The notes beneath the pieces are model-generated. The model was given only the letters and a program-made list of their open reading frames with translations, ran no database searches and was not told the origin of the DNA. From Thermoanaerobaculia bacterium (GTDB lineage: Bacteria > Acidobacteriota > Thermoanaerobaculia > Multivoradales > Multivoraceae), in assembly GCA_963664405.1 (NCBI GenBank), contig OY761158.1, positions 2,752,001 to 2,816,000 of the forward strand: DNA of 64,000 bases. Direction: 5' to 3'. Below are positions 30,545-57,146 of the stretch, piece by piece (position 1 is the stretch's first letter; the number at the start of each line of letters is the position of its first letter). The translations under genes and the position numbers were made by a program.

Positions 30545-31087
30545 ATGACCATACCTACAAAGACAGAGAGCACGCGAGTCGAAGACAGGCCTGTGCAGAC
30601 GGAGCCTGTCGAGGACCGTGCCTCCCAGCGCCTACGATTCGAGCAGCGGCAGGACGGCCAGCTGTGGGCCCTGCGCGGGGACGAGGCGAAGGCGGTTGTG
30701 GTAATGCGCTGCTTTCCGTGGTCGGAGCCGACCCGCTTTATCTCGCTTCGAGACGAGGACGAGAAAGAGCTCGCGCTTGTCGAGGATCCGAGCGAGCTCG
30801 ACCCGGGGTCTCGCGAGGCCCTGGAGCAGAGCTTGGCGACAGCCGGCTTCGTGCTCGAGATCGAGCACATCTTCAAATGTGAAGACGAGGTCGAGATTCG
30901 CAACTGGGAAGTGCTCACCTGTAACGGTCGTCGTCGCTTCCAGACGCGACTTGATGACTGGCCCCGCGAGCTTCCCGGAGGGGGTCTGTTGATCCGGGAC
31001 GTTGCCGGCGACCTGTTCCAGGTTCGGGAGCCGGAGCGGCTCGACAAGAAAAGCCGGGCCGTGCTGTGGGCGTTCTTGGACGACTAG
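30545..31087 (+). CDS. DUF1854 family protein
   Basis: RCFPWSEPTRFISL, WEVLTCNG, LLIRDVAGD; typical position after an ABC transporter. Confidence 0.75.
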   Translation: MTIPTKTESTRVEDRPVQTEPVEDRASQRLRFEQRQDGQLWALRGDEAKAVVVMRCFPWSEPTRFISLRDEDEKELALVEDPSELDPGSREALEQSLATAGFVLEIEHIFKCEDEVEIRNWEVLTCNGRRRFQTRLDDWPRELPGGGLLIRDVAGDLFQVREPERLDKKSRAVLWAFLDD

Positions 31088-31142
31088 ACCAGCGTTTCCA
31101 AAGTTCGAGATATGTGCGCGAACTTTGGAAACGCTGGTCTAG
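31084..31142. mobile_element. Internally deleted palindromic element, subfamily A (59 bp)
   Basis: 24 bp arms CTAGACCAGCGTTTCCAAAGTTCG identical to the 56100 copy; first TAG is the stop of DUF1854. Confidence 0.85.
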
Positions 31143-31177
31143 TATTACGGTCCACTAAACGATAACCCTGTGTCAGT

Positions 31178-33040
31178 TTAGGGGCAGGTGGCGAACGCGT
31201 CGGTGTCCTGAATCGGGACGAAAGCTCTTCCTAACGGGTTGGTGTAGGTCAGGATCATGCCTTCCTGGGTATCGGTGACCTCGATCTCGACCTCTACGTT
31301 GGTCAGACCGGCGGCAAAGACCCAGAAGTGGTTGAAGGTGGTATTGCAGGCGTCGAGCACCTTGACCACGATCTCGACGTTCTCGGCCTGGAAGAAGGAG
31401 TAGAAGCCGGTGTCGTCGGTCAGGGCTTGGGCGGCGCCGGTGCCGCTGTCCTGACTCGTTACGAAGCTCGACCTCACTCGAAACCGGTCTCCGTTGAGAC
31501 AGAGGGTACTGGCGTCTTCGACACAGACGCTGGGAGCTTCGAAGCTTACGGCTGGGTCGTTGGGGTCCGGCGGCGGCTCGGGCTCGGGCTCTGGCTCGGG
31601 CTCTGGGTCCGGGTCCGGGTCCGGTTCGGGGTCCGGCTCGGGCTCCCCCAGGACCTCCTTGATGAGCTCTCCATCTTCCTGGCTGACCATGACGGAGGGT
31701 ATGGTGATCGAAGGGTCCGTCCCGGCCATGGGGACCGGCGCGCCCGATTGATTGTTGACGACGAGGACTCCGACAGCGCCCGCGTTCTGGGCGTTCTTGA
31801 CCTTGACGGTGAAGTCGCAGGCGCCTCGATCCACTACTGCGATGGCACCGTTCAATTCACCGGAGTTGGTGAGCACGTTGCAGCCCTCACCGGGTGCCGC
31901 GCTTGCGTCGCTGACCGCAGTTAGATTTGCTTCGACGCCGCCCAGGGTCAAGCTCGGACCAAACTGCGCGGTCGTTACTTCGTACTTGCCGGCGATACTC
32001 GGGGGCGAGTCCAGGCTGAGCCTGGGCGACGGGGGGAGTAGGTCTGCCGCAGCGGCGTTGGCCATGGCGCCGTCCCAGACCAAATTGCCCGAGTTGATCG
32101 CCGAGGCCACCCGCTCAGGGGCGGTCATCTGGTGCCAGAGCAGACCGATCGTGTTGTCGCGAATGTGGCGGCTGAAGATATCGGTCAGCCCGAGCGCGTT
32201 CTGGCCGGTGGTCTCATTGACGAGACTGACGAAGCCAAGGCCGTGAGCGAGCTCGTGGAGTGCAACGTTGACGAACCCGATCTGACCCTGCGGAGTTCCA
32301 CCCGCGAGACCGTAGTAGAAGCGGGATCCTGCTCCCAAGCACTGGTTGTCGATCGCATCGTTGAAGGTCAATTGGGCCTCGCCTGCGTCAGGGTCCGGCA
32401 GGTCCTCCAGGCTGAGATTCTGACCGCTCAAGGCCTCCGCCAGTGCTCCGGGGTACCAAGTGTTTGAGAAACCGGCGCCGGCGAAGCTCTCGAAAATGAA
32501 CTGGGGGCCGGCCTGGGCGATGGTCGCTCCGCTCGGGTCGCAGGTCAGCGGGTCGAAGCTGACGTCGATGTTGATCTCTACATTACTGGCCAAGAAGCCG
32601 CCCCAGATGTCGGCGACGAGCTGGATGGCTGCACGGCGTTGATCCCCGAGGACGCCTGGCGCGTTGAAGCCCTCACCGGCACCATCCTGTATTCGGATAG
32701 TGACGTTCGAGCTCCCCGGCTTCCAACCGAGATCCCTGAAGTGGTCGAGAGTGAGGTCGATCTCGCCGGCTTGAGTACTTGGAGAAGCGAAGGGCTCCAT
32801 CAGCAGGTCCGGAGTCGGCAGTGGGTCCCAGTGAGAGACGGAAGATCCTGGCGAGACCGGGTTCGGTGCGTTAAGCCGCAGCCGGCCCATGGTGTCTGTG
32901 CCGATCGGGGATGTTGGATCGAGGCGGAGGCTGGCGCTGACCTCTGCGCTCCGTGAAGGTCCCGCTGTGAGAGCAACCAGCAGCAGCGCAGCGGCAGGTG
33001 TGCCCGCCTTTCGGAGGCGCCGATCGAGGTTGGAGATCAC
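31178..33040 (-). CDS. Secreted PA-domain zinc metallopeptidase with Pro/Glu/Asp linker and C-terminal disulfide domain
   Basis: HELAHGLGF; VDRGACDFTVKVKNAQNAGA PA domain; (PE/PD)n linker; signal peptide. Confidence 0.85.
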   Translation of the reverse strand: MISNLDRRLRKAGTPAAALLLVALTAGPSRSAEVSASLRLDPTSPIGTDTMGRLRLNAPNPVSPGSSVSHWDPLPTPDLLMEPFASPSTQAGEIDLTLDHFRDLGWKPGSSNVTIRIQDGAGEGFNAPGVLGDQRRAAIQLVADIWGGFLASNVEINIDVSFDPLTCDPSGATIAQAGPQFIFESFAGAGFSNTWYPGALAEALSGQNLSLEDLPDPDAGEAQLTFNDAIDNQCLGAGSRFYYGLAGGTPQGQIGFVNVALHELAHGLGFVSLVNETTGQNALGLTDIFSRHIRDNTIGLLWHQMTAPERVASAINSGNLVWDGAMANAAAADLLPPSPRLSLDSPPSIAGKYEVTTAQFGPSLTLGGVEANLTAVSDASAAPGEGCNVLTNSGELNGAIAVVDRGACDFTVKVKNAQNAGAVGVLVVNNQSGAPVPMAGTDPSITIPSVMVSQEDGELIKEVLGEPEPDPEPDPDPDPEPEPEPEPEPPPDPNDPAVSFEAPSVCVEDASTLCLNGDRFRVRSSFVTSQDSGTGAAQALTDDTGFYSFFQAENVEIVVKVLDACNTTFNHFWVFAAGLTNVEVEIEVTDTQEGMILTYTNPLGRAFVPIQDTDAFATCP

Positions 33041-33044
33041 GGCT

Positions 33045-33542
33045 CTACTTCTTCGCTGCGGAGGTGGAGGTGACGGGTGCCGAGCTAGCGGCGTGCGTAT
33101 GCGCGGCATCTGAGCTGCTTCCGCTCGGGCTGACACAGGTCATCTCCCAGCTTCCGTCCTTCGTCACCCGCAGTCCGGTTGCGCTGTGGAAGCGACCCTG
33201 AAGAAAGACCCCTCGACCGCCGCCGGGCAGAGGAAAGGGCCGCAGGCCCTCGGTCGAGCGGCTGAACAAGGCCGAGCTTGCCTCGAGCAGACGCCCGACC
33301 TGGTCGGGACTCGGGTTGGAAGTGAGCTCGCCGGTGACAGGGTCGATGAATGCGCGTAGCCCGAGACTTCCGTTCTTGCCTGCATCGGCGTCTCCGGGTC
33401 CGGAAAGCGTGCTCGATCCGTCCTCTGGGGGTGACGAGCTCGTCTCTTCCGCCGAGGCGAGTAGGACGCCGCTGACGAGGATGAGGGCAAAGGCGAGCGC
33501 AGGGGCGCCCCTGGATAGGGAGTGAGATCGGCGACTATTCAT
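33045..33542 (-). CDS. Small secreted protein (post-PEP-CTERM-1-like)
   Basis: GLRAFIDPVTGEL...SRSTEGL...VFLQGRF; AGAGGAG RBS. Confidence 0.65.
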   Translation of the reverse strand: MNSRRSHSLSRGAPALAFALILVSGVLLASAEETSSSPPEDGSSTLSGPGDADAGKNGSLGLRAFIDPVTGELTSNPSPDQVGRLLEASSALFSRSTEGLRPFPLPGGGRGVFLQGRFHSATGLRVTKDGSWEMTCVSPSGSSSDAAHTHAASSAPVTSTSAAKK

Positions 33543-33933
33543 AGGTGTGACTCCTCTTTCTTTGGTACTCACGAGCCAGCGACGCAGGATGTCTCCGCAA
33601 AGACCGGGCCAGGGCGGAGCGGGTTGGTCGCTGCAGCATCTTTTTCGAGGGGTTTCGGCAATCAGGGCGTCCAATATGAAGACGGGCGAGTTTCGCGAGG
33701 TCGCTCGTGACCGCGATTACGTTAGCAGTAGGAAAACCAAGGAAGAGACCATTGACGTACTCATCCAGGGCACATACGAGCCTCAGCTCAGCCGTAGCCT
33801 CATGCTTCTCGAAGTCGGTGGCTTTGAGGTGGGGTTACAACAAGGGGTCCGGAACAGAGTACGCTTTCACCTTCGATACGCCGTTTCATGTCTTTGAAGA
33901 ATCAGGGTCGCTCGCTCGCCAACAGAGGTAGCG

Positions 33934-34686
33934 ATGATGCGAGAGTCGATTGGAGAGACACCAAACGCCCGCGTAGAGAGTACATTCTTGCCGCCAGGCA
34001 TTAGGCGGCGGCCGAAAGAGATCAAGGAGTCTCGGGTGAGAGCAGTGCCAAGCGCCCCGATCGACACGGATGCACGAGAGAAGGCCCTGGTCGCGCGCAT
34101 GCGCCAGGGCGATGAACGTGCTTACGACGAGTTTTCTGACGTCTATATCCCGGGTCTCTATCGATTCGCGTTCGGCCGACTGGGCCGGGACCGAGAGCTG
34201 ACTCGGGAGATCGTACAGAACACGGTCTGCAAGGTCGTCGCCAAGCTCGACACCTATCGGGGAGAAGCGCCGCTGCGCACTTGGCTGTGCGCGTGTTGTC
34301 GCAACGAGATCGCGGGCCACTACAGGCGGAAGTCTTCTCGTCCGATGGAAGTCGAGCTCGAGCCAACGAGCAACTCGCCTGTGATGCGATCGGCCGATCC
34401 CGATCCAGAGGCCCAGTATCTCACCTCGGAGACTGCCGATATGGTCCATCTGGCCCTAGACGACCTCCCAGCCCGCTACTCTCGGGCTTTGCACTGGAAG
34501 TACCTCGATGGTCTCTCGGCCCGCGAGATTGCCGCACGTCTCGAGCTCAGCACTAAGGGGGCCGAGTCGCTCCTAGCGCGAGCTAGGGGCGCTTTCCGAA
34601 CGGCCCATGAGAGGCTGACACGGGCGCCCGGACCAGCCTCAGTTTTCACCAACACGCCTAGTCTTACAGGGATGAGCAAGTCATGA
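33934..34686 (+). CDS. ECF RNA polymerase sigma factor
   Basis: Region 2 (YRGEAPLRTWL) and region 4 (LSAREIAARLELSTKGAESLLARAR); start uncertain. Confidence 0.88.
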   Translation: MMRESIGETPNARVESTFLPPGIRRRPKEIKESRVRAVPSAPIDTDAREKALVARMRQGDERAYDEFSDVYIPGLYRFAFGRLGRDRELTREIVQNTVCKVVAKLDTYRGEAPLRTWLCACCRNEIAGHYRRKSSRPMEVELEPTSNSPVMRSADPDPEAQYLTSETADMVHLALDDLPARYSRALHWKYLDGLSAREIAARLELSTKGAESLLARARGAFRTAHERLTRAPGPASVFTNTPSLTGMSKS

Positions 34687-35729
34687 CGAACCCACCCATC
34701 AAAAGCTCACAATACGGCGAGCCACCGAATGACGACGAGGTCGCAAGGCTGATCCGCATGGCCGGACGGCCCGCGGTGCCACCTCTTGACGATATGACCG
34801 CGATCAAAGCCGCGGGGCGAGCGGAGTTCCGGCGGCGCTGGGTCCGCAAGCGCTAGCCCAGCCGAGTTACGATCTCGCTGGCGCTCGCCGCAGCTTTGGG
34901 TTTCGCGGCGCTGGGACTCATTCTGTGGCGGAGCACCCCCGAGGTAGCCCCCTTCCCGGCCGCTAGGGTGGCGTCGGTGGAGGTAGTGGAGGGAGACGTT
35001 ACTCTGCTTCGTAGCGGGGGGGCCTCCGGCACTTGGGCTCTGGAGCCTGAGGGTGTCGTTGTCGCCGGCGACCGTATCGAAACCGCGCCTTCAGCGGGTC
35101 ACACTGCTCTACTCATGGACGACGGAGTCTCCTTGCGGCTCGACGGCGGAGCCCGAGTCGTATTTGTCGATGCCGACACGGTCGATCTCGTTGAAGGGGC
35201 TCTGTATGTGGACGCTGCGCCGTCAGCCGAGGTTGCTTCCGTGCTGCGTATTCGCACACCTCTGGGTGTGGTGCAGCACGTGGGCACCCAGTTCGAGGTG
35301 CGTTTCACCGAAGGGGAAGAAGGGAGCTTGCGCGTTCGGGTACGAGAAGGTCGTGTTCTCGTTGCCCGAGAAGATCAGACCCTCTCTCTCGAGTCCGGCG
35401 AAGAGCTTGCGGTGGCCGACGATGGGGCCGTTGTCCGCGGCGAGATTTCGACCCACGGTGCCGCCTGGGACTGGGTCTTGGAAACGGCGCCGCCCTTCGA
35501 GATCGAGGGCCAGTCGCTGCAAGTCTACCTAGACTGGTTGGCTCGGGAGACAGGCTGGGAGATCGTGCTCGCCGAAGGCGCGCTCGACAGGCCGACCGAT
35601 GAGGTCATGATGGCCGGTCCGGTTCTCCACGTTCGACCCGACGAAACGCTCAAAGTTGTATTGCCTGGTGTGGACCTCGCCCATCGCTTCGTCGAGGGTC
35701 GCCTGATCCTCGAGCATCTGATCCCCTAG
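34683..35729 (+). pseudogene. FecR-family anti-sigma factor with a single in-frame TAG at 34854-34856
   Basis: ATGA overlap with the sigma gene; frame continues after TAG into the TM helix and FecR domain (GTQFEVR, VREGRV). Confidence 0.75.
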
Positions 35730-35892
35730 TGCCGTGTCTCCGACATGGCTTACCAATATCTCGGCCCCTTTAGCCCGCTGCCGTCGTCGCGACTCGTCGA
35801 CATATTCCCAATATGCCTGCCTCGTCGCTCCTTGACAGCGAACAAAATGGCCTCGAGCTCTTGGCAAGCCATGTCGGAGACACAACACCTAG
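35726..35892 (-). mobile_element. Palindromic element, subfamily B (167 bp, CTAG-flanked)
   Basis: Arms GTGTCTCCGACATGGCTT / AAGCCATGTCGGAGACAC; core homologous to subfamily A; sits between two convergent TAG stops. Confidence 0.85.
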
Positions 35893-38567: not shown

Positions 38568-38616
38568 CGCGTAAGGGTCGAGGCATAGCCGACCCAGAGC
38601 AGAATACCAGTCGGGA

Positions 38617-39310: not shown

Positions 39311-39725
39311 TCCGTGAAGCGCGACACTAGGTGAATCTCGCAACCAAGAGGGAGAAATCGTCTTCGAAAACGTCCTCCCGCATGACGTTCCGCACTGCCT
39401 GCTCGATCCGCTCAGGCTCACCGCTCTCCAACGCCGGGCCCGCGACCACCAGGTCGAGGAATTCGTCCATGCTCCACTCTTCGCCCGCTGTAGTCACGAC
39501 CTCGAAGGCTCCGTCGCTGTACACATACAAGCGGCTGCTGGGCTCGACAGTGATTTCGGCATCTTCGAAACTGAGATCTTCCATCAATCCGATCGCCATG
39601 TTGGGAGTACGCAGTCTCTGGTTCGATTTCTCACTCAGGAGCAGAGCCGAGGGGTGGCCGGCAGACGCGTAGAGGAGCTTACGGTCGCTCGAGTCGAAGA
39701 TGCCGTACCAGAGGGTGAAGTACAT

Positions 39726-39803
39726 CTTGGGTTCAAGGGGTCGTCGCAACGTTGCCTTGGTGAGCAGAGTGTACAAACTCATCGAAGACTTCGGCAGGGG
39801 TTC
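39726..39803 (-). mobile_element. Isolated IS30 right end (second copy)
   Basis: Near-identical to the segment starting at 40218. Confidence 0.85.
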
Positions 39804-40217
39804 TGAGCGGTCACGGTTTCGTGGACACCAAGTTAAGCCCCATCGGGGCAGTTCCTATTCTGCATCAGTTCGGGTAGTCAGCTTCGGACGAGGCTGTGCG
39901 AGGTTCGGGGAGCGCAGCCTCCCTTCGGATCCGACCGCCGGTCGCGCGTGAGTTCACGCTGCCCCTTCGAAGGCCTCGGGGCTCAGGAATCCGAGCGTCG
40001 AATGCTGGCGTCTCAGGTTGTAGAACACTTCGAGGTAAGAAACCGCTTCGTCGTGAGCTCGCTGACGAGTCTCGAAGGGTCGGTCCCAGACCTCGGTCTT
40101 GAGACTGTCGAAGAAGCTCTCCAAGACCGCATTGTCATAACAATTTCCGACGCCGGACATGCTGCAGCGAAACCGCAGCTCAGCCAGCCGATCCTGGTAA
40201 GCCTTCGAGGCGTACTG
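39804..40217 (-). mobile_element. IS3-family 3' remnant
   Basis: QYAS...SMSGVGNCYDNAVLESFF...YNLRRQHSTLGFLSP; terminus GTGTCCACGAAACCGTGACCGCTCA. Confidence 0.85.
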
Positions 40218-41669
40218 CTTGGGTTCAAGGAGTCGTCGCAGCGTTGCCTTGGTGAGCAGAGTGTACAAGCTCATCGAAGACTTCGGCAGGGGTTCTCCAG
40301 CCGAGGGTCTTGCGGGGTCGGCCGTTGAGTGCGAGCGCGACCGCGGCGAGGTCGTCGCAGGAGTATCTGACAAGGTCGGTGCCCTTCGGGAAGTACTGGC
40401 GTAGTAGTCCGTTGGTGTTCTCGTTGGTGCCCCGCTGCCAGGGGCTGTGCGGGTCGCAGAAGTAGATCGCGAGGCCGGTATCGACGCGGAGTTGAGCGTG
40501 TTGAGCCATCTCGGCGCCCTGGTCCCAGGTCAAGGACCGGCGGAGCTGCTCGGGCAGCGTGGTGATTGACACCGCGATCGCGTCACGGACGGCTTCGGCG
40601 CCGTGCCCGGCGAGGGCCGGCCCGTTCTTCACCCTCGATTCGGTCCCGTGCCCTTCCATGCGGGGCAGGTGCAGCAGCATCGTGAACCGCGTAGTGCGTT
40701 CGACGAGGGTCCCGATCGCTGAGCTCTCGAGCCCGACGATCAGGTCGCCTTCCCAGTGACCCGGCACGGCCCTGTCGCCGGCTTCGGCGGGGCGTTCGCT
40801 GATCATGATCTCCGGAGTTACAAATTTCTTGCCTCTCCCCCGGGTTCGCGCATGCGGCACTCGTAGCGCTCGCCCGGTTCGCAGGCACGCGACGAGCTCG
40901 CGTTTGAGGGCTCCTCGACCTTGGATGTAGAGCGCTTGGTAGATCGCCTCGTGAGAGATCCGCATCGACTCATTATGGGGGAAATCAATCCGAAGCCGGT
41001 TCGAGATCTGCTCCGGACTCCAGGATTTCGCCCAACGCCGATCCTGGCGACGGCCGTGCCGACGGCCGATCCAACGCACATCCGGACCCGGCACCAGCTC
41101 CCCGTCAGGCCTTGCGATCACGCCGGCGAGGCGGTTCTGCACGTACTCACGCAAGGCATCGTTCGCGGCAAGCTTGGAGACCTTCGGACGGCTGGCGCGC
41201 CGCTCCGCGTGCCACTGCGCAGTCGTGGCCCGATAAGTTACGGCACGGCTGCGAGTCGCCGCGTTGCGGCGCAGCTCCCGCGAAATCGTCGACGGTGAAC
41301 GACCCAGGCGGCGAGCGATCTCACGTACCCCAACATGCTGAGCGTGAAGGATGGCGATCTCTTCACGCTCGGCGAACGACAGATAACGCCCCGACACCGG
41401 AGCCAACGAGATAGGTCGCATTCCACCAGCTTGCCTGAACCATCTCGACCCGACAGCCGGCGACACCCCAGCCTCTGTTGCGGCGTCCTCGCTGGACGCC
41501 CCACGAGCGATCGTCTCCCAGAACCGGATCCGGTCCTCGCGCCGCGCTGTCGAGGGCCGGCCAGGTGACCGCATCTGGCCACGCATCGCTCGAATCGCAC
41601 CCTGACACTTGCCAACTCCCATCGAAACACCTCCATCACGAGATGTTGCGACGACCAGTTGAATCCGCC
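40218..41669 (-). mobile_element. IS30-family element, transposase 40225..41622
   Basis: STISREL HTH, GHWEGDL, TWDQG, PWQRGTNENTNGLLRQYFPKG; ends GGCGGATTCAACTGGTCGTCGC / CTTGGGTTCAAGGAGTCGTCGC. Confidence 0.93.
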
Positions 41670-42469
41670 CATGTTGCCATGGTCTTCCATCCGGAAAGAT
41701 CGATTGAGAGCGGCAAGCACGTCGGCCGGCTTGGAGAAATCGACTCCTGGCAGGGCTTGCTTGGACAGGAGGTTCAGCACCGCCACCGAGTGCAAGGCTG
41801 GAGCTGTGCCGTGGCCGGAAACATCCACGAGATAGATAGCGAACTTCTCGTCGGTGATCCAGTGATACCCGAAGGCGTCGCCTCCGAGCTTGTCCGAAGG
41901 AATGAAACGCCATTCGGTCGTCACCCTATCGGTCTTCAGAGGAGCTGGCAGCAGAGAGCGAACGTACCTCGAGGCCTTGTCGAGATCGCCGGCTAAGCGC
42001 TCCTCTTCTTCGACTTCGCTCTTATTTCGATACTCGTGTTTGAAGAGCGAGTTGCCGACCTGGACCATCGAGCCCACGGCGACCACCTGTGGCTCCTCGA
42101 CGGACTCTTCGTCGACGAAAGTTCCGTTGCTCGAGCCGAGGTCCTCTACGACGAGTTGTCCGACGATCACGCTCAGGCGGCAATGCCTCCCGGAGGTTGC
42201 CGGGTCTTGGATCAAGATGTCGGCCCCCTCCTTGCGCCCGACCGTGATTGCCGTGGATGGGAGCTCGATCCTCTTGCCGGACATCGGCCCCTCGACAGCA
42301 AGCAGATAGTGTCTACGGTCGCGCGACGAAACAGTCTGACGCTGAGCGACGATGGTCTTGTCGAATTCCATGGGGCCTTGGCGACGGACGGCTCTAGCAT
42401 TGCCGGTCCGGACCCCGCATCGTATGACGAGTCCTCTCGGGTCGGGGCCTCGAAAGGACGATGTGCCTG

Positions 42470-45808: not shown

Positions 45809-45825
45809 CGGGATCTTCTCCGACT

Positions 45826-46113: not shown

Positions 46114-46135
46114 CCGGGCTAGAATGGGATGCCCT

Positions 46136-47977: not shown

Positions 47978-48038
47978 CCTACCCCCTAGGGTGAAGACAG
48001 CGACGAGCGGCGTTGCGAAGATGAGCCTCCCACCGAGA

Positions 48039-48204
48039 CTAGACCAGCGTTTCCACAGTTCGCGCACATATCTCGGCCCCTTCTGTCCGCTGGCGGCGTT
48101 TCGCCTCCTCGACATATTGCCCAATATGCCTGCGTCGGCGCGCCTGGCCAGCGAACAGAATGAGCTCGAGCTATTGCACACGAACTTTGGAAACGCTGGT
48201 CTAG
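48039..48204 (-). mobile_element. Palindromic element, subfamily A (166 bp, CTAG-flanked)
   Basis: Near-identical reverse complement of 56100..56265. Confidence 0.9.
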
Positions 48205-48324
48205 CGGTGGCGGAAGGAGTCTGCAATGGTGCCGGAGCTTGTCATCTTCGCTGTTTTGTTCTCGGTCTTGGTGGTTCCCTCGGACCCAAAAAACATTCTT
48301 GCGGGCGGTGTTCAAGGCTGGGCA

Positions 48325-48492
48325 CTAGTGGACGGTAACACTCGAACGTTTAGTGGCTGAGTGAGTCATTCGTGGTCGAGATCAAGGCGCGCTGACGCAG
48401 GCATATCGGGGACTATGTCGAGGAAGCGTAACGCAGAGATCGGCCGCGAGGGCCGCTCAGGCGCTAATCGTTTGGGTGTTACGGCCCACTAG
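48325..48492 (+). mobile_element. Palindromic element, subfamily C (168 bp, CTAG-flanked)
   Basis: Arms CTAGTGGACGGTAACAC / GTGTTACGGCCCACTAG; core AGGCGCGCTGACGCAGGCATA..TATGTCGAGGAAGCGTAACGC. Confidence 0.8.
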
Positions 48493-48505
48493 ACCCTAGG
48501 GCTCG

Positions 48506-50836
48506 CTAGCGCGTGAGCCTGACTTCGTGACGCCCGGGCCCGAGGGCAACGGCGACGAAGGAAGCGTTGACTCTCAGTACGGGCGCCGGATTCCCGTCGA
48601 CGACCGCCCGCCAGTTGTGGTGAAAAAACTCATTGGTTGCCAGAACCGTAGGGGCGCTCGTCTCGGCCTGAAAGAGCAACTCGCCCGGTTTTGCGTCAAC
48701 GAGATCGATCGATGCGCGCAGATCCCCTCGCTGGGAGTCCGGCGGCTCCGGTAGCGCTCCTCCTTGCGTAGACGTCAGAATGCCGTGGCGCCGTAGCTCG
48801 GCACTGCCGGCCAGGTTGAGCTCGGCACTGCCGGCCAGGTTGACCAGCCGCTGGGCCGCTTCTTCGAAGGATTGAACGATCTCCCACGAGGAGAGCGCCC
48901 AGCCTTTGGGAAAGGCATCCGCGGCCTCGAAGAAGTGAAGATTCTCTGGATCGTTCTCGTCGGTCAGAGGGATGCCGCCGGGCATCAGGTGGCCAGGAAG
49001 GATCCACCAACGGATTCCCATCATCTGCGCGATGCCGAGCTCGAGCATGCGGGGGTAGTCGAGAATCATCCAGTAGGGGAGGTTCACCTCGCGCACGAGA
49101 TCGGTGGCCTCGAAGAAGTCGAGGACTTCTCGCGGCATCCAGTGCAAGCTGTAAGAGAGCGCGCAGGGAGTGTCGAGGTAGTAGCACCACTTCTCTCCCA
49201 GAAGTCGGTACTCGCGCTGATGGCGGACTTCTTCGGGGACCCGCTTGAGGATGCTCTCGTCACGGGCGAGAGTGATGCGCGCGTCCTTGACACCCTGGCT
49301 GCACTGGAGGGCACCGGTTTGGTAGCTCTGGTCCGCAAAGCGCCAACTGAAAAGGAGTCCAGCGACAATCAGGGCGGCTGAGCCGAGGTAGGGCCGAGCG
49401 CCGGGCTGCCCGGCGAGAGTGGCCACCGCAAGCACGGCTGCGATGACGAGGATGGCGACCGCTACGTCGATCGTGAGCGTAGCTCGTGAAAGCGCGTGAG
49501 CGAGGAAGAGGAGAAGAGCGTAGACACCTACTGCGACGGCTACCTCAGCACGCCGGCGCCCAGGGGTCGAAGGTCGCAGCGTCCACTCAGCAAGATAACC
49601 TACGCCCAGAAGCAGCCCTCCGATCTCGGCAAGAACGAGCCAAGTTCTTTGTGTCGTGTGAAAGAAGATGGCCGCCGAGGGCGTGACAGCCAGAGGAAGA
49701 AAACTCCACTCCAGACGATCGCCGCGAATCGCGAAGAGATCGAATGGGAGCTCGGGGAGGAAGCTCAGAGCAAGCGAGACGAGAAAGAGTGGACCACCGA
49801 TTCGGCGTAGAGGGCGAAGCTCGTCGGGTGCCGCCCAGACTTCGCCTTCTATGACCTGTCGCCTGCCCCTGCGACCGTTGATCATGACCGCCACCAGGAG
49901 GCTTATGCCTGCGATCGACCATGGAGCCAAGCCTCGGCCAGGTTTGAGGAGATCGGCGAAGGTAAACCAATCGTGGCCACGATAAAGATAGTCGAGAAGG
50001 CGCTCGGGATCTGAGGCCATCTGGCCGAGGAAGGCGGACTCTTCCATGGCGCCGCGACTGCGCAGGTACATCGGCAGCAGCGCGATACTGACGAGGCTGA
50101 GGGAGAGTAGAGGAGGGCCTGCTCTGCGTATCGCCAAGAGTCCCTCGCCGTGCAGGCGCTCGAGAAGGGTGCGCCTCTCGAGCCAGGCGTGGATCGCCAA
50201 CCAGAGACATACCAGTGCGCCTACCCAATAAAGAGCAAACGCCTGCCCCATGCAAATGACGGTCGCCGCGGCGAGAAGGGCCCAGTATGCGTAGCCCCCC
50301 TTGGTGGTTGCCAGGAAGAGGCCGAGAAGGACCAGCGGAAGCATCAGCCGTCCGCGAAGCAGATCGACGTGCCTCCACTCGATAAAGATCGTGTAGAGCC
50401 AGGGGTAGGTGCATGCGACGGCAGCAGCAAGCGCCGTCGGGACCTTGGCACGGGAGAGGAAGAAGAAAAGCGCGGTCATCGAGGCGAGGACATACAGACT
50501 GGTGATTCCCCACTCGAAGCCCATCAACGAGCTCGGCTCTTGGGGGGCGATACGAGCAGCGAGAGCGGGCAGCAGGGGGAAGACGACCGCCGGTCCCCCT
50601 AACGCGAAGGTGGCGGATCCGAAGTGCGTGCTTGGAGTGGGTCTGCCGGCGAATGCCTCGAGTGGATGCTGGTAGGTGTAGGCCTTGGTCGGCAGGAAGT
50701 AATGGCCGATGTCTTCGCAGTAGAGAAAACGGGGATCGGTTAGGCGGAAGTGCAGCAGCCAGGTAACGGCGATGAAGAGACCGAGTATCGCGAGCGTAGC
50801 TCGCCAACCCCAGATCATGGACCGTGCCGACCGCAT
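48506..50836 (-). CDS. YfhO-like polytopic membrane protein (GT-C type)
   Basis: Many TM segments; C-terminal WRAVVDGNPAPVLRVN..VALGPGRHEV. Confidence 0.7.
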   Translation of the reverse strand: MRSARSMIWGWRATLAILGLFIAVTWLLHFRLTDPRFLYCEDIGHYFLPTKAYTYQHPLEAFAGRPTPSTHFGSATFALGGPAVVFPLLPALAARIAPQEPSSLMGFEWGITSLYVLASMTALFFFLSRAKVPTALAAAVACTYPWLYTIFIEWRHVDLLRGRLMLPLVLLGLFLATTKGGYAYWALLAAATVICMGQAFALYWVGALVCLWLAIHAWLERRTLLERLHGEGLLAIRRAGPPLLSLSLVSIALLPMYLRSRGAMEESAFLGQMASDPERLLDYLYRGHDWFTFADLLKPGRGLAPWSIAGISLLVAVMINGRRGRRQVIEGEVWAAPDELRPLRRIGGPLFLVSLALSFLPELPFDLFAIRGDRLEWSFLPLAVTPSAAIFFHTTQRTWLVLAEIGGLLLGVGYLAEWTLRPSTPGRRRAEVAVAVGVYALLLFLAHALSRATLTIDVAVAILVIAAVLAVATLAGQPGARPYLGSAALIVAGLLFSWRFADQSYQTGALQCSQGVKDARITLARDESILKRVPEEVRHQREYRLLGEKWCYYLDTPCALSYSLHWMPREVLDFFEATDLVREVNLPYWMILDYPRMLELGIAQMMGIRWWILPGHLMPGGIPLTDENDPENLHFFEAADAFPKGWALSSWEIVQSFEEAAQRLVNLAGSAELNLAGSAELRRHGILTSTQGGALPEPPDSQRGDLRASIDLVDAKPGELLFQAETSAPTVLATNEFFHHNWRAVVDGNPAPVLRVNASFVAVALGPGRHEVRLTR

Positions 50837-50859
50837 CCGCCACTCACCAGCGACTTATC

Positions 50860-51717
50860 TCAGGTCCTGGGATCCAAAGATACCCGCGCCGGCGCGACAG
50901 GCTGGCCTGGAATGTCGACGTGAGCTCGATAGATAGTGCCTGAGTGATCGGACTCTGCTCCGCGGGAACCGGTCACGATGAAGAGGTCGTGCAGCTCGGC
51001 GCCCCCGAAGCAGACGCTGGTGACCATCGGAAGAGGAACCTCGATGGCGGACCGTTCGTTGCCGTCGGGGGCAAACACTCGCACCTTTCCTCCCCCGGCA
51101 ACGGCGACAAAAACTGCTCCATCCTCTGCCACGGCGAGACCGTCGGGGGCCCCGTCGTCGAAGGTGGCGAAGACACGTCGCTCCGAGACACTTCCGTCTT
51201 CCCGCACGTCGTAGACCCCGACGATTTGGCGCCGAGAATCGGAGTGGTAAAGACGGCTGCCATCGGGTGAGAAGCCGAGTCCGTTGGTGAGAAGAATGCC
51301 CTCCGCGAGAACACGAGTGCTGCCGTCGAGGTCGAGCAAGTGAAGGGCCCCCGATCGCTGCTCGACTCCCGGGTCGAAAGGACTCGCTCCCAGGGAGCCT
51401 ACGTATACGCGGCCAGCGAAGTCCGTAGTCAGGTCGTTGAAGCCGACCCCTCCGCAGGCTTCGCGGTCGAGAAGTATCGCGGTGCCCTCGGTGGCTGGCC
51501 CTTTGTAGGCGACATTGCGGCCGCCGACTACGAGCCCGCCACGGTGGTGGAGCGCCATGCCGCCGATGCCGCGCCTGTGCTCGACTACTTGGGATACCTC
51601 TCCGTCGGCAGCGAGGCAGAAAACTCCGCCGTCGTGCACATCGCTGAAGAGTAGACCCCGCTCTGCGTCCCAGACCGGCCCTTCGATGAGAGTGAATCCG
51701 CTTGCCAGCTCCTTCAT
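50860..51717 (-). CDS. SMP-30/gluconolactonase family protein
   Basis: EGPVWD, FND, NGLGFSPDG, PDG, TSVCFGG. Confidence 0.92.
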   Translation of the reverse strand: MKELASGFTLIEGPVWDAERGLLFSDVHDGGVFCLAADGEVSQVVEHRRGIGGMALHHRGGLVVGGRNVAYKGPATEGTAILLDREACGGVGFNDLTTDFAGRVYVGSLGASPFDPGVEQRSGALHLLDLDGSTRVLAEGILLTNGLGFSPDGSRLYHSDSRRQIVGVYDVREDGSVSERRVFATFDDGAPDGLAVAEDGAVFVAVAGGGKVRVFAPDGNERSAIEVPLPMVTSVCFGGAELHDLFIVTGSRGAESDHSGTIYRAHVDIPGQPVAPARVSLDPRT

Positions 51718-51739
51718 CGTCCCCTCACCTCTCTTGGGA

Positions 51740-51802
51740 TGCGCCGTCCTCGGCGCCATGTTGCGTAGCCGATGGGAGTGATAGCGATCATTCCGTCGCC
51801 TA
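51740..51802. repeat. Divergent copy of the REP-like repeat at 16.0-16.2 kb
   Basis: TGCGCCGTCCTCGGCGCC..TAGCCGATGGGAGTGATAGCGATCATTCCGTCGCCTA. Confidence 0.75.
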
Positions 51803-52648
51803 TACCTTGAAAGTTCGCACCAAGTTCTTCTCGGCGCCCTCCGCTACCGAGGCTTCGAGCTCCACGTAACCTTCAAGGCCGCTGCCCCTCAGTTTCTCTC
51901 GAAAGAGGCTGTCGAGTTGAAAGACCCCTGCAGAGTTGGTCATGTTGACCGAGATTCGCACGGCCTTTTTGTCGCCGGCGTCGATCGTTACCGACTCGAT
52001 CGCAGCGGCCGAGATCGAGTGGATGCTCTGCGAGCCCTTCTCGAACGGGATGCGGGAGCGCCCCTGCGCCATGTCGAGAGCGTCCGCGATGCGTACGACC
52101 CCTGCTTCCAGCGTCATTGGCTTGCCACCGGATCGGTGCGAAATGATGGCATGGAGGATCTCGGAGCGGATAATGGCCCCCTCCCGTGCACCGTAGACTA
52201 CGGGCAGCAACTCTTTGAGCTTGGAGTCGGCGAGAAAGAGTGAATAGGACTCGTGGTCGGCGCGATGAATCGACATTCCGAGATCGTGAAACAAGGCGGC
52301 GAAAGCGACGACGACTTCAGCGTCTCCGGGCTCCATTCCGTAATTGTGAGTAACTGAAGGCTCGACGCCGCTCTTCAAGATCAACCTCAGCAACTTGAGG
52401 GCGATGTTCATTACGATCTTGACGTGCACAGGGCCGTGGTCGGTCATTCCGAGCCGTTCCATCGCGTTGACGTTGACTGCCAGCCATAGAGCGTAGACAT
52501 CGTCATCCTCGTTGAGATGCTCGATCAGGGCCTTGAGCTTCGGATCTGTCCGGGGTGGCGCGTTGATCCGGACACGATTGGCGAAACGCTCCTCGATGGT
52601 GCGGCCGGTGTCTGCCAGCTCCTCGCTTGTGGTACTTGCTTCGTTCAT
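51800..52648 (-). CDS. HD-domain phosphohydrolase
   Basis: DHGPVH, HDLGMSIHR, ADALD. Confidence 0.88.
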   Translation of the reverse strand: MNEASTTSEELADTGRTIEERFANRVRINAPPRTDPKLKALIEHLNEDDDVYALWLAVNVNAMERLGMTDHGPVHVKIVMNIALKLLRLILKSGVEPSVTHNYGMEPGDAEVVVAFAALFHDLGMSIHRADHESYSLFLADSKLKELLPVVYGAREGAIIRSEILHAIISHRSGGKPMTLEAGVVRIADALDMAQGRSRIPFEKGSQSIHSISAAAIESVTIDAGDKKAVRISVNMTNSAGVFQLDSLFREKLRGSGLEGYVELEASVAEGAEKNLVRTFKV

Positions 52649-52830
52649 GGCTGGGTCTCCGATCGGGGCTGGATATGCCGGCTCGGTGTTCGCCAGCAGC
52701 CGCCCTTCTAGAGCTTCTTAAGGGTGTAGTTTCTGAGTTTCCGAGTCAAGCCCGAGGTGCCGGGCTATGTTCGCCTGACGATGCGCTGACGGCCGCTGCG
52801 TACCCTGATGCCGAGCTCGGAGAGCGAAGA

Positions 52831-53058
52831 ATGAACGAGATCCCCGCAAGCCGTCGCATTGTTGAGACCTTGCTGGTGCGGGCGATGCTCGAGCACGAGT
52901 CCGGTAATCGTGAGGCCGCCGCCGACTTCGCCGCCGCGGTACTCATGATGCTCGATGGAGATCGAGACAGAGAACTGGTCGTGGAGGCCAGACGTGTGTT
53001 GCTGGTCTCCGGCGTCGTTGGGCTGGGGGATGACGTCACTCCTCCTCAGTCGAGGTAA
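52831..53058 (+). CDS. Small hypothetical protein
   Basis: GGAGAG upstream; helical composition. Confidence 0.35.
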   Translation: MNEIPASRRIVETLLVRAMLEHESGNREAAADFAAAVLMMLDGDRDRELVVEARRVLLVSGVVGLGDDVTPPQSR

Positions 53059-53072
53059 GAGAGCCTCGACTG

Positions 53073-53375
53073 TCAGCCGCGGTCCCGCCGCGCCGCCAGC
53101 TGATTGTAGATCCAGGCTACACACCAGCCCATGCAGGCGCCGACGAGGCCGCCGTAGACCAGGCCCAGGACAGAGCCTCGCCAAGACACTGAGTAGCCGG
53201 GGAAGTAATTGTGCAGAAGGGAGAGGTGCTCTCCAACGCTAACGCCTCCGCGCAGGACCAGCCATGCTGTGGCCACGAACAGTCCGATCCCGAATACCAT
53301 CGAGAAGACCACTGCCATGATCCCAGCCCGCAGACGCGCGACGGCGGCTGCGATCAGCTCAGTCTCTTCGTTCAT
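53073..53375 (-). CDS. Small membrane protein paralogous to the C-terminus of the upstream oxidoreductase
   Basis: GLFVATAWLVLRGG..VGEHLSLLHNY..SW. Confidence 0.75.
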   Translation of the reverse strand: MNEETELIAAAVARLRAGIMAVVFSMVFGIGLFVATAWLVLRGGVSVGEHLSLLHNYFPGYSVSWRGSVLGLVYGGLVGACMGWCVAWIYNQLAARRDRG

Positions 53376-55187
53376 TCGTCGCCGCTCTCGAACAATTCCA
53401 GGGCTCCGGTCGCCTCGAGTCCCCTTCGCAGGCTCGCTTCATGCCATCCCACCTGGACATTGATCGCTTTGGCGAGGACCCAGCCGAGCCCGAAACCGCC
53501 GATGCCGGCTTCGGCGGCCCCGATGACCGCGCCCTGCCAGGAAGCGTTGAAGCCAACCAGGTAGTTCCCGAGCAAGGATAGGTTCATACCGACTCTCGAG
53601 CCTCCTTTCAGTAGGAGGAGCGCGGTGGCAAGGAAGAGGCCAGGGGCACCTGTCGCGCCGATGGCACCGCCCAGGGCCACGGGATCGTAGCGCGCGAAGG
53701 CCGACCTCATCAGCTCGTCTACTGGGGCCGCATTCACCGTTCCGGGAGTTGCCCGATCTCCCGCCCCGGTGGCGGATTGGCTCGCCTCTTCGTGGTAGTC
53801 ACTGTCGACGTTGACTGCCCACACATCATGGCTGGCGCCGGCTATGTTGCGAGCGGCGAGGATGCCGGTCAGCATCGAGTGGTCCTGGTTGTTGTATCGG
53901 TGCTGGCCGTTGCGACCGACGGTTTGAAGATTCTCGAAGGTTTCGATGAACGAGCGCAGAGTCTTCAGCGCCTCTTGGTAGCCCTCATCGTAAACCGGGT
54001 AGGCCTTGGGCACTCGGATTACGACACCGTCCAGCACTTCTCCGCTGTCGAGCAGGCCGAGTTTCACACACTCTCGCTCGCCCAGCTCGATCAGGTCGCT
54101 GTCCTCCGATTCCCACAGAGAGTCTCCCTGCTGCACGAAGTACTCTAGCCCCAGGCTCGTTTTCTCGGAGTCCGGGACCATATCGGGACTCCAGTTCTTG
54201 AAGTTCTGGATCCTGCCCATCTTCACCTCCGGGGCATGGATGTAGATCCAATTGTCGGGAAAGATATTGGGCCGATCAACGATGAGGCCGACCGTCATGA
54301 AGTCTCGATATCGAAGGCTTCGTGCTGCGGCCATGACCTCCGGCGGCGGGGGCGGATCTAGAGCAAAGAGGAGGCTGCTGATCGGCATCGACGAGATGAC
54401 GTGCTCCGGCCGTAGGCTTTGCCCGTCGCCGTTGCTGCCCCTCCACCTCGATGCCGACGATGCGGCGGTTGTCGTGCTCGATCCTGCATACCTCGGAACG
54501 CAAGTGTGTCTCGATGCCCTGCTCTGCCAGCCGGTCGCGGCAACGCTCCCACATCATGCCGGGTCCGTGGCGCGGGTAGTGGAAGCTATCGATGAGCGTA
54601 GTGACCACTTCGCCCTTCTTCGAGGCTTGGCCCAGGAGAGCGTTTCGGAGCGCAGTCGCGAGATCGAGGTTCTTGATTCTTTGGCTCGCCCACTCGGCGC
54701 CGATCTCGCTGCACGGGATGCCCCACACCTTCTCGGTGTAGGTCTCGAAGAAGATCTCGAACAGTCTTCTGCCGAAACGGTTGACAACCCATTGTTCGAA
54801 GTTCGTCTCGGCGGTTGGGAAGAGCCGCGCCGCAAGGTAGCTGGCGCCGATTCGCGTGGCCTCCACGGGGCCAAGCCCGGTCAGAGCGTTCAGGGGGCGG
54901 AGGGGATAGTCGAAGAAGTGGTTCTGATAGAAGATCCGTGAAAGGCGGGGCCTTTCGAGGAGATCTTCACCCAGGAGTTCTTCCCAGACTTGGCGGACCA
55001 GCTCGACTTTGGTGAAGAAGCGATGCCCCCCCAGGTCAAAGCGATACCCCTGGTAGTGAACCGTGCGGGAGATTCCACCCACGACCGGGTCTTTCTCCAG
55101 CACGATAGCCGGAAGGTCGAGCTTCGCTAGCTCCCAAGCCGCAGTCAAGCCTGCGGGCCCTGCTCCGATGACTGCCGTACGATTCAT
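53372..55187 (-). CDS. FAD-dependent oxidoreductase (UDP-galactopyranose mutase/PPO-like) with membrane tail; one frameshift near 54438
   Basis: IGAGPAG, FDLGGHRFFTK, AYPVYD, GRNGQHRYNNQDH; the shift lies in a G4 run and may be a sequencing error. Confidence 0.8.
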
Positions 55188-55194
55188 GGCTCCC

Positions 55195-57146
55195 CTAGCA
55201 CTGAGGTTCGGTCTCCTGGTCCGAGCTTGTTGGCCGATACCCTTCCCGTTCGCGTAGCACGACCACGTCTCCGCCTCCGAGTGTTCCATGGAAGCGCTTG
55301 GCCGTTTCGAAGCTTGCCAGCAGTTCTGTCCACATCTGCGGGTCGTTGGCTTTGAGGTGCCCACCAAAGTGAGGATGACCCAGGTCGTACCGGCGGCTGA
55401 AAGATGGGCTTGGAGCGCCTCGACCGACGAAGCCCCTGCCATCCCGGGGGCGTAGAGAGCTCTGTAGACCGAAAGCGCCATCCCCACGGCGACCGATCGG
55501 ATCCTCGGGAGCCTTCTGCGCGAGAACCCAGTCTCGCGCTCCGGTGAAGTCCTGCTTTGGACTGCGGTAGTTGCGAGGCAGGGCCAAGGCCGACAGCAGG
55601 ATCAGGGCAAGGACGAATATGGCTCCCAGATTCTGCCTAGCTCCACGAAGTCGATCGCCGAGGTCGTCTCCCAAGAGTCGCGTACCCACGACTACGAAGA
55701 GGGCGGCGAAGCCGAGCTCGTTGAAGAAGAAGCGGGGCCACAAGTTTCTCTCGAGTAGAGCCAATGTGCTCCCACCAAGAACGGCGGGAAGGACGAAGCA
55801 CCAAGTGGCAACCGGTGTCCGTCGCCATAAGCTTCTGGTGCCTATGAGCAAGACCAGCGCGGCCGCGATCAGCCCGGTCCAGCCCAGTACCGACCCGATC
55901 GCGAGTCCACGCACGGTTTCCGCTAGCGCCCAAAGGGGGCTCTTCCACTCTTCAGGTCCGGTGCCGGCGCCGGCGGATGGTTGGGTGTAGAAGGCGAGGA
56001 CCTGGGGAAGGACCAGGGCGTAGAGCTGCAGCGTCAGCGTTGTGGCAAGAAGGAAGCCGACCCCTGGGCGCCATCGCAGAGTAGAGCCACTCTGCCGCAC
56101 TAGACCAGCGTTTCCAAAGTTCGTGTGCAATAGCTCGAGGTCATTCTGTTCGCTGGCCAGGCGCGCCGACGCAGGCATATTGGGCAATATGTCGAGGAGG
56201 CGAAACGCCGCCAGCGGACAGAAGGGGCCGAGATATGTGCGCGAACTTTGGAAACGCTGGTCTAGCAGCGTGGCCACTACCAGAAAGTGGGCGGTCACAA
56301 CGAAGACCATGCTCAGATGGAGACCCATGCCCACCGCGACGACTCCCGAGTAGCCGATCCAGGTGGACCAGCGACCCTGCCACAGCCCCCGCAGCAGCAG
56401 GTCGGTTGCCAGCACAGTAGCGAAGAGGAGTCCGGTGTAGCCGCGGGCGTTTGAGAGAACCATACGTGGTGGTAGGACACGGCGAGCAGAGCGACGACCA
56501 GAATCGTGTCGCGCTGACTCGTGACGAGAGAGGCGAGACGCTGTGTTGCCCACAGGCTGGCAACGCCGAAGACGACTGCGGGAAGGCGCAGTGCGGCGGC
56601 GCTCTCTCCAAATGCGGAGACGCTGAGGTGCCCGAAGACCGAGTAGAGGAGGTGGTTGTTGTCATCCGTATAGCGGGTGAGGATCTGCCCTAGGGAGGGC
56701 CGTACGAACTTCACCAAGGTGGAGACTTCGTCGATCCACAGATCCTGGTGGATACCGATCCAGCGCAGCACGAGCGCTAGAGCCAGAAGGCCTACCAAGG
56801 CGAGCGGGTAGCCCCTGCTGGGGGCAACTACCGTCTTGGTTGTGGGCGGTTGCCACAGAGAGTCCTCCGGACCGAGGACGGGCGCTTCACCTGCCCTTGG
56901 CCGCCAGACTGCAGCCACGAGCCAAAGGCCGTGAAAGAGGAGTAGCGCCTTGAAGAGCTTCGCGCCAACCTGCAGCTGCTCGAAGCGGGGGCCCGGATCA
57001 GGCTCCAGCCTAAGGATGACAGAGACCGGTAAGAGCACAGCCATCAAGACCAGGCTCGCGCCCAGGCCGAGACTAAGCGCTCGATCTCTCTTCGCCGCCT
57101 GGAGTGAGGGTCTGTGATGGTGGCGGGCCAAGGGTGATAGCTGCAC
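55195..57146 (-). pseudogene. GT39/ArnT-like glycosyltransferase with frameshifts and an in-frame palindromic insert
   Basis: DLWIDE, NNHLLY, ALRLP, ARGY; shifts near 56450, 55495 and 55365. Confidence 0.7.
56100..56265 (+). mobile_element. Palindromic element, subfamily A, inserted in frame (162 bp + CTAG)
   Basis: 24 bp perfect arms; adds 54 sense codons LDQRFQSS...TNFGNAG to the host frame. Confidence 0.9.

Follow-up and report, generated by a model that had tools for sequence, protein, structure and literature searches.

Probable miniature transposable elements with interchangeable arms around a widely conserved structured centre in a Thermoanaerobaculia chromosome

We focus here on a family of CTAG-flanked, rod-shaped palindromic elements in a Thermoanaerobaculia bacterium (Acidobacteriota), five copies of which lie in the stretch of 64,000 nucleotides that we analysed (the window), positions 2752001-2816000 of a host chromosome assembled as a single 6.78-Mb contig with 62.6% G+C (contig OY761158.1, assembly GCA_963664405.1). 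We consider it likely that these are miniature inverted-repeat transposable elements, or MITEs, whose arms are swappable around a folded centre, and that this centre is selected in the lineages of elements that make the copies. With high confidence, the element itself is of an ordinary kind, a MITE that duplicates TA, and its unusual part is the widely conserved structured centre. MITEs are usually defined by their conserved ends and have a free interior. Here the arrangement is reversed: the ends are swapped, and an interior of 60-90 nt keeps its sequence, its mismatches and its pairing not only in Acidobacteriota but also in Desulfobacterales, Myxococcota and Bacillota, with genomes holding as many as ~200 copies. 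This points either to a hitherto undescribed cis-acting function for IS630-type elements or to a new and widespread structured motif.

The original prediction, made from the window alone, had located five copies, with full copies of 166-168 nt and with CTAG at both ends of each, and all of this proved accurate; a blastn census of the genome found no sixth copy inside the window. The copies, and the core hairpins of the full ones, are as follows.

31084-31142, no strand assigned: mini-A, 59 nt, two perfect 25-nt A-type terminal inverted repeats and an 11-nt loop, bounded by CTAG, no core.
35726-35892, core on the minus strand: B-type element, 167 nt, bounded by CTAG.
35797-35820, minus strand: core hairpin of the B copy, GCAGGCATA and TATGTCGA on the two sides of the loop, with the flanking pair flipped to G-C.
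48039-48204, core on the minus strand: A-type element A1, 166 nt, bounded by CTAG.
48109-48133, minus strand: core hairpin of A1.
48325-48492, core on the plus strand: C-type element, 168 nt, bounded by CTAG.
48397-48421, plus strand: core hairpin of the C copy.
56100-56265, core on the plus strand: A-type element A2, 166 nt, bounded by CTAG.
56171-56195, plus strand: core hairpin of A2.

The two A copies are 99% complementary to each other and thus lie in opposite orientation. The stems that had been quoted for the three arm types (CGCC/GGCG in A, CGAC/GTCG in B and CGCT/AGCG in C) are correct. Across the genome, blastn with the five copies finds 275 loci. A relaxed core pattern matches at 281 places, and 243 of them fall into a single cluster by similarity. 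Folded as single-stranded DNA, copy A reaches -64 kcal/mol, as against -27.0 +/- 3.2 for shuffles (z = -11.5), and by these three measures the repeat signal is far beyond chance. Sorted by their arms, the 243 core-bearing copies comprise 141 of type A, 35 of C, 27 of B, 18 of D, 10 of E, 9 of F and 3 others. That one cluster carries several arm sets bears out the proposal that these are palindromic mobile elements of one family, whose centre covaries and whose arms can be exchanged; the three arm types named at the outset, A, B and C, are real, and the genome total is at least six. A and B have their inner arms in common, differ over the outer ~28 nt and are not independent of each other, and C, D, E and F have only the central 60-70 nt in common. 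The elements are 59-197 nt long, lack coding capacity and are dispersed over the whole chromosome. The A arms measure 24-25 nt and are 100% complementary, and each CTAG-bounded family has complementary ends of its own. There is an A variant of 179 nt with a 13-nt insert, and a single CTAG can be common to two neighbouring elements. Among the D-type elements, there are tandem arrangements of units and a variant half-unit whose hairpin has had its 3' half replaced (about 5242358-5242796, 5447963 and 6746231), and five D copies have a one-sided extension of ~65 nt that begins at a CTAG.

The evidence that carries the reading comes first of all from the structured core. We aligned 84 core sequences (81 distinct) from the host genome and other genomes under a two-helix model. 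Standard pairs occupy 78.4% of the cells, against 64.0% in shuffled alignments, and the covariation score is 0.337 against 0.114, with none of 500 shuffles as high and slid controls at or below 0.141; covariation, first noticed among five copies, thus holds in a larger alignment. Within the hairpin, pair 36-51 is GC in 53 and AU in 23 cases, and pair 39-48 is CG in 39, GC in 21 and UA in 16. The outer helix is fully different between families, as can be seen at pair 22-64 (CG 27, GC 25, UA 8) and at pair 25-62 (GC 25, CG 24, AU 7). Between G/A positions lies pair 29-58, which is CG in 75 and GC in 4 of the 81 distinct rows, with both forms present within family F of the host genome, and its flip to G-C in the B copy, which the original prediction had pointed out, is real. 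The features that are not Watson-Crick pairs are the best conserved of all: the G.U pair 34-53 is kept in 78 of the 81 distinct rows, the GCAGGC columns on the 5' side and the GTCGAGGA columns on the 3' side are invariant or nearly so, and a 3x2 internal loop, GCA opposite GA, adjoins the hairpin. In some families (rows L055 and L059) the G/A positions by the outer helix are swapped for G-C pairs, which fits their facing each other in a helix, and tandem G-A pairing is a model that would fit the conserved mismatches. In family D an extra G pairs with the C that is bulged in other families. Farther out, as judged by comparison of loci, a helix that varies in length is framed by recurring CAAGGC (5' side) and AACGCC (3' side). 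RNAalifold recovers part of the core structure only. The orientation of the core relative to the inner arms is the same in 125 of the 126 aligned A sequences (125 copies and the reference), the remaining one having no recognisable core, and flipped cores, which we considered for the A copies, do not occur among them. The core is kept while the arms differ, and it covaries; the centre is therefore under constraint beyond that expected of transposase-binding ends, as had been suggested. In the proposed arrangement, the arms would be interchangeable and the centre would be a domain of 60-90 nt selected as a folded single strand. Its hairpin would be closed by G-C, G.U and C-G pairs next to the invariant 3x2 loop GCA/GA, followed outward by one flippable Watson-Crick pair, a G/A-rich step, the variable helix and the second conserved loop, CAAGGC ... 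AACGCC.

The core is found far outside the host genome. By blastn, the central 80-120 nt of copy A, and not its arms, are present in 14 of 41 related genomes, the host genome (G000) being counted. Of 401 Acidobacteriota genomes sampled, 52 have the exact motif GCAGGCRTA-N4-10-TAYGTCGA, a count that takes in G000 and the unpublished G088 with its one match, as against 2 genomes for a reversed control pattern. Per genome, the motif reaches 163 matches in the host and 111 in G145. Copies in other genomes are mostly CTAG-bounded rods again, with yet other arms. In G151, a single-contig genome, all 8 of 8 exact core matches lie on one strand, and at one locus (C1:662700-663530, L068) four core units follow one another head-to-tail with a period of 168 nt. 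A wider scan of a collection with one genome per species gave at least 119 stretches; among the matches listed are metagenome-assembled genomes (MAGs) of Desulfobacterales, Desulfobacteraceae, Geobacteraceae, Syntrophaceae, Smithella, Myxococcota, Nitrospiraceae, Spirochaetaceae, Carboxydocellales, Auribacterota and others, as well as Bacillota MAGs, and no Rickettsia record is among them. Counts over the whole genomes of five of those MAGs came to 204 (a Desulfobacterales MAG), 3, 26, 1 and 14, with controls at 0. Low-GC genomes have A+T-rich arms and an unchanged core. A plasmid collection gave no match. Literature searches on MITEs and inverted repeats of Acidobacteria and on IS630 CTAG MITEs returned no description of such a family in the results found, and two core strings gave, among the matches listed, unrelated primer-type matches only.

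Second, the ends of the elements carry the footprint of mobility. Each end was read by anchoring on the arm sequence just inside it and taking the four bases outside. Of the 222 copies of CTAG-bounded families, 203 yielded both ends (19 were missed). The pair is CTAG/CTAG in 158 copies, TTAG with CTAG in 11 and TTAG/TTAG in 2; TTAG with CTAA is seen in none of the 203, and CTAA at one end in all. The outer base is thus independent at the two ends, and together with the absence of TTAG/CTAA this indicates duplication of TA with a preferred C before and G after it; a 4-bp duplication of a YTAR target would give TTAG/CTAA pairs, which is not what is seen. A zero-duplication model with A...T ends yields the same sequences as TA duplication, and sequence alone cannot separate the two. 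At three filled sites in repeated DNA, the paralogous empty sites hold one CTAG or a CTAA-type variant, and their filled counterparts read CTAG-element-CTAG. A CTAG-specific cut-and-ligate mechanism was considered and rejected, TTAG ends being far more numerous than CTAA ends (26 vs 1, some ends double-counted). The CTAG ends, which the original prediction had noted, are not a special structural feature; they are the footprint of TA-duplicating insertion into CTAG in the style of IS630/Tc1. CTAG is rare in the genome (7502 observed, 12769 expected under a Markov model), and the terminal TAG is a gene stop codon in 48 of 161 CTAG-bounded copies, as against 819 of all 7502 CTAG sites in a crude gene set, a coincidence that, in our reading, follows from the choice of target. 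In four public runs, contigs stop at the elements and none spans an empty site, the listed joints connecting repeat copies. In practice, then, the copies break short-read assemblies, coincide with TAG stops and could pass for regulatory RNAs or terminators.

We thus propose that the elements, non-autonomous and non-coding, would be moved in trans by a cut-and-paste DDE transposase that binds terminal inverted repeats of 20-30 nt. Insertion would be into TA, preferably within CTAG, with duplication of the TA, and the transposase would most likely be of the IS630/Tc1-mariner type. That the elements are TA-duplicating MITEs is very probable; that the transposase is specifically of IS630 type we favour more cautiously. 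The TA in 5'-CTAG-3' is reportedly the IS630 target, to go by the title of a 1991 paper. The genome has two DDE_3 matches and one full IS630-like element (5164179-5165423, 1245 bp, helix-turn-helix and DDE_3 in two overlapping frames, CTAG at both ends), and an IS630-like element in genome G263 is likewise flanked by CTAG. TA duplication characterises the IS630/Tc1-mariner elements, ISY100 among them, according to the part of PMC2170065 that deals with them. Since the inverted repeats of the IS630-like elements match no MITE family and no cognate was found, the class of enzyme is one that we infer. Within the window, as had been claimed, no mobilising enzyme is seen, its range having no DDE_3, DDE_Tnp_1, Y1_Tnp or IS110-type transposase match. 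A genome-wide search for inverted ends with CTAG-like flanks 700-3000 nt apart gave other types of insertion sequence only, none with MITE arms. The IS630-like elements in G263 and G145 have ends other than MITE arms, the high-copy MAGs G426, G428 and G430 hold DDE_3 fragments only or none, and in G034 the end matches include no clear long pair among those listed.

All arm pairs 200-6000 nt apart in the host genome are A copies interrupted by other insertion sequences. A 2.55-kb IS91-type element (Y2_Tnp and Zn_Tnp_IS91, with a tyrosine recombinase) is present in two copies that are 97.4% identical (6272421-6275118 and 6758848-6761545), both inserted exactly in the core hairpin loop of A-type elements, and an IS21-type element (IstA/IstB) interrupts one A copy at 6281701-6285331. 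Twelve 'long A' copies of 235-248 nt (e.g. 481089-481337) contain an 80-nt remnant of another element with the same junction as the IS21-type insertion, so the composite seems to have spread as a unit. IS110-family elements were considered as users of the hairpin and discarded, as none of 15 matches is inserted in a copy.

Third, the two strands of the elements differ in how well they fold. On family consensus sequences, the energies of the RNA folds and the numbers of G-U pairs are, for the core strand and its complement:

Family A: -111.6 vs -87.3 kcal/mol; G-U pairs 7 vs 1.
Family B: -107.4 vs -71.2 kcal/mol; G-U pairs 9 vs 3.
Family C: -113.2 vs -76.3 kcal/mol; G-U pairs 10 vs 3.
Family D: -90.9 vs -72.4 kcal/mol; G-U pairs 4 vs 1.
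Family E: -108.6 vs -104.6 kcal/mol; G-U pairs 4 vs 4.
Family F: -121.6 vs -107.8 kcal/mol; G-U pairs 4 vs 7.

As single-stranded DNA, copy A folds at -64 kcal/mol on the core strand and at -52 on the complement. The earlier statement that mismatches resolve as G-U pairs on one strand is thus true of A, B, C and D, and fails for E, where the numbers are equal, and for F, where they are reversed. The core could act as single-stranded DNA, at replication forks or during transposition, or as read-through RNA.

At which level the core is selected can be seen from the A family. In 125 A copies, picked by their arms alone because a choice anchored on the core would be biased, the per-site difference from the consensus is 0.013-0.057 in the core and 0.009-0.062 in the inner arms. 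The core is thus no better conserved than the arms within the family, which indicates no extra constraint on the core of individual copies; only comparison between families and between genomes reveals constraint on the core, a constraint that bears on the lineages making the copies. Selection on the element lineage, and not on each inserted copy, suggests in turn that the core may serve the element's own propagation or retention, in cis, a suggestion that we make tentatively; a benefit to the host from each copy is less likely. A bolder possibility, which we regard as doubtful, is that the centre is an autonomous, pan-bacterial structured module of single-stranded DNA or RNA, read by an unknown and possibly host-encoded factor, with the arms as its vehicles. 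If so, the G.U pair, the GCA/GA loop and the CAAGGC...AACGCC loop would be a new nucleic-acid motif, with possible roles in priming, in protection from hairpin nucleases, in recruitment of a transposase or as a decoy.

The core could also be a functional non-coding RNA, or an RNA module that affects the stability or processing of neighbouring transcripts or binds a conserved protein, that the arms spread and from which the host benefits. The traits of the core are typical of structured RNA: it covaries, has an invariant G.U pair and a length-variable helix, and its non-Watson-Crick loops are conserved. In four of the six families the core strand folds better as RNA. Copies also lie mostly after genes: of the 243, 73 are between convergent genes, 105 between tandem genes and 34 between divergent genes (31 are inside called open reading frames), and there are the 48 of 161 that end on a stop codon. 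A position after genes is, on the other hand, expected anyway from a CTAG/TAG target, and the 105 copies between tandem genes show no orientation bias, 51 having the core strand in gene direction and 54 in the opposite direction. Furthermore, a sigma-70 scan found no sigma-70-like promoter in copies A1 or C, and the core of family A is, as described, no better conserved than its arms. Nor does the core match an Rfam family: against Rfam 15, the window has 0 matches at the gathering score, and when the copies of the window and 16 diverse loci were scanned at permissive thresholds, chance-level matches were the only ones, all below gathering. We thus judge this RNA explanation improbable.

The distribution of the core strand relative to replication bears on a further alternative. 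Cumulative GC skew forms a clean V with its minimum at 2752898 (window ~898) and its maximum at 6765398, so that the origin of replication is probably right at the beginning of the window; the two replichores differ in size (~4.0 and 2.8 Mb). On the replichore in which the plus strand is leading, the core strand is plus in 49 and minus in 76 copies, and on the other in 71 and 47 (Fisher p = 0.0013). Of the 243 copies, 98 carry their core on the strand that local skew marks as G-rich (leading) and 145 on the opposite one (binomial p = 0.003). The better-folding strand is thus under-represented on the lagging-strand template, and the trend is present in most 0.5-Mb bins and in families A to E. 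Palindromes are known to be unstable, and one reading of the bias is that copies whose stabler hairpin forms on the lagging-strand template would be lost preferentially. Such a bias, with a strand-specific hairpin that has conserved unpaired bases and with 13 Y1_Tnp matches in the genome, would also be in keeping with repeats of the REP/BIME kind, for which an HUH tyrosine (Y1, RAYT-type) transposase would read the central hairpin and mobilise the element in single-stranded DNA form. The strand bias of IS200/IS605 elements, however, is opposite in direction to the under-representation described here. Also against movement of this kind are the long terminal inverted repeats and the footprint of TA duplication, neither of which Y1 elements have. 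Of the 13 Y1 genes, only one has a copy within 1 kb, and none is flanked by copies (nearest distances 389 nt to >40 kb). In addition, the GTAG or CGTC tag of REPs is unpaired at one end, as set out in the relevant part of PMC3733652, and CGTC, where present here, is inside a stem. Movement by a Y1 enzyme is on these grounds very unlikely.

Slightly less probable still is that nothing in the core is selected, palindromy being maintained by intrastrand template switching and recent common descent, and the wide distribution being due to recent horizontal transfer of a single successful MITE. Copies within a family are indeed young and uniform, and a few viral contigs hold real copies (nine match the pattern, about five being real by eye). 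In genome G201, labelled as another, distant family of the phylum, A, B and E copies (contig C5, loci L076-L078) are 96-99% identical to the host genome. At least one flank of these copies is, however, also 100% identical to the host genome over 45 nt, so we take them to be probably shared DNA, a binning problem or a mislabel and do not count them as transfer. More importantly, template switching would erase the G.U and G/A mismatches, and these are the best conserved (78 of 81 rows, invariant columns); and, whereas the core stays constant, the arms and helix P2 have unrelated sequences in different families and a GC content that is low in some genomes and high in others.

The least credible alternative is that a Xer-like or other tyrosine recombinase uses the core in double-stranded form, as a recombination site with two protein-binding arms and a spacer, and not as a folded strand: the core has two inverted arms with palindromic inner and different outer parts, TATGTC is common to the A/B/C/F cores and the right arm of the candidate dif, and the tyrosine recombinase-bearing 2.55-kb element sits exactly in the hairpin loop of two A copies, but no hybrid sites occur at the junctions of that element, in most cores elsewhere the sequence is TACGTC, compensated by a change opposite, and the spacer varies from 4 to 10 nt while neighbouring positions covary, which a hairpin explains and a protein site does not. 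The candidate dif, at 6765434-6765450 with its flanks, has two short inverted inner arms and a 6-nt spacer and, lying within ~40 nt of the point where cumulative GC skew peaks, is probably the dif of the chromosome; mimicry of dif by the core was rejected as weak, with matches at 7 of 11 right-arm and 3 of 11 left-arm positions (counted by hand).

Several observations weigh against our preferred reading of MITEs with swappable arms around a selected centre. First of all, no transposon with arms matching any family was found in the genome, nor in the few other genomes inspected, and the resident IS630-like element has inverted repeats other than those of the MITEs. Second, several other CTAG-flanked insertion sequences, with DDE_Tnp_1 transposases, reside in the genome, so that CTAG targeting alone does not single out IS630. 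Third, about 4% of the ends read xAAG or xGAG, a poor fit to clean TA duplication. Fourth, outside the invariant G.U pair of the core, A.C cells are hardly rarer than G.U cells (about 9 vs 12 over the listed pairs). Finally, family E lacks the strand asymmetry and family F shows it the other way round, the bias with respect to replication is modest, with one 0.5-Mb bin (24 vs 4) weighing heavily in it, and the gene calls behind the positional counts are crude, resting on open reading frame length and codon-position GC only.

The window also holds repeats of other kinds. A second, smaller family of CTAG-flanked hairpins (GAAATGAT...ATCATTTC type) is found at 16051-16120, 16179-16248 and 51766-51792, and members elsewhere in the genome are an insertion target of A-type elements. 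A perfect 37-nt inverted repeat (9578-9614 and 9919-9955), with 304 nt between its arms, is possibly another small mobile element, and an 83-nt direct repeat with 99% identity stands at 3805-3887 and 6913-6995, 3.1 kb apart. Over 39632-42287 the summed contig depth in four public runs rises to between 100 and >4000, as against ~5-12 for neighbouring DNA, and this stretch, which includes two 85-nt direct repeats (39720-39804 and 40212-40296), looks like multi-copy or widely shared sequence of unknown kind. At 48795, the contigs of 4 of 4 public runs are 24 nt shorter, either a length variant or an assembly difference.

The elements can be compared with several known systems. The MITE named Chunjie, from Geobacter uraniireducens, is, like them, a hairpin-forming MITE (178-235 bp), and it is found in Geobacteraceae, where the core described here also occurs. 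In the portion of PMC3184786 that describes it, Chunjie is A+T-rich with 21-bp inverted repeats and 9-bp direct repeats, and on this description, with 9-bp direct repeats in place of a TA duplication, it is a different element. REP/BIME sequences with RAYT likewise comprise hairpin repeats with conserved unpaired bases and strand specificity. REPs are, however, 20-40 bp with an unpaired GTAG or CGTC tag (as given in sections of PMC3733652), and they lack both inverted-repeat ends and TA duplication, whereas the elements here measure 125-197 nt and have inverted-repeat ends. The Rickettsia palindromic elements (RPEs), of which the original prediction had suggested RPE-1 as a possible likeness, are similar in being palindromic repeats of ~100-150 nt that can sit inside genes (here 31 of 243, by crude open reading frames). 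The elements here differ from them in their TA/CTAG footprint and inverted-repeat ends, and RPE-4 and RPE-6 are CGTC-tagged REPs, with an architecture unlike that of our elements, in the passages of PMC3733652 that treat them. ERIC/IRU and Correia (NEMIS) elements are, in the same source's account of them (PMC3733652), MITEs of 100-200 nt that are imperfect palindromes with long hairpins, gene-adjacent and co-transcribed. They resemble the elements here as imperfect palindromic hairpin MITEs beside genes; each is, on the other hand, confined to one bacterial family or genus and has no established sequence relation to ours. Orientation-dependent RNA effects have been reported for both.

IS630/ISY100 elements have TA duplication in common with the elements here, and the resident IS630-like elements have CTAG flanks; they are autonomous, encode a transposase and measure 1.1-1.3 kb, whereas the elements here are 59-197 nt with other inverted repeats. 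RUP of Streptococcus pneumoniae is short and non-coding, with terminal inverted repeats, TA duplication and many copies, and its mobilisation in trans by an IS630-type element has been proposed. ISfinder likewise has a MITE labelled MITEEc1_IS630, as mentioned in part of PMC11602168. With RUP and the MITEs attributed to IS630 the present elements share a short non-coding sequence, inverted-repeat ends, insertion at TA and high copy number. They differ in that no cognate insertion sequence with matching ends was found here and, above all, in that the ends vary and the centre is conserved, with at least six unrelated arm sets, in a single genome, around a core that is present in several phyla.

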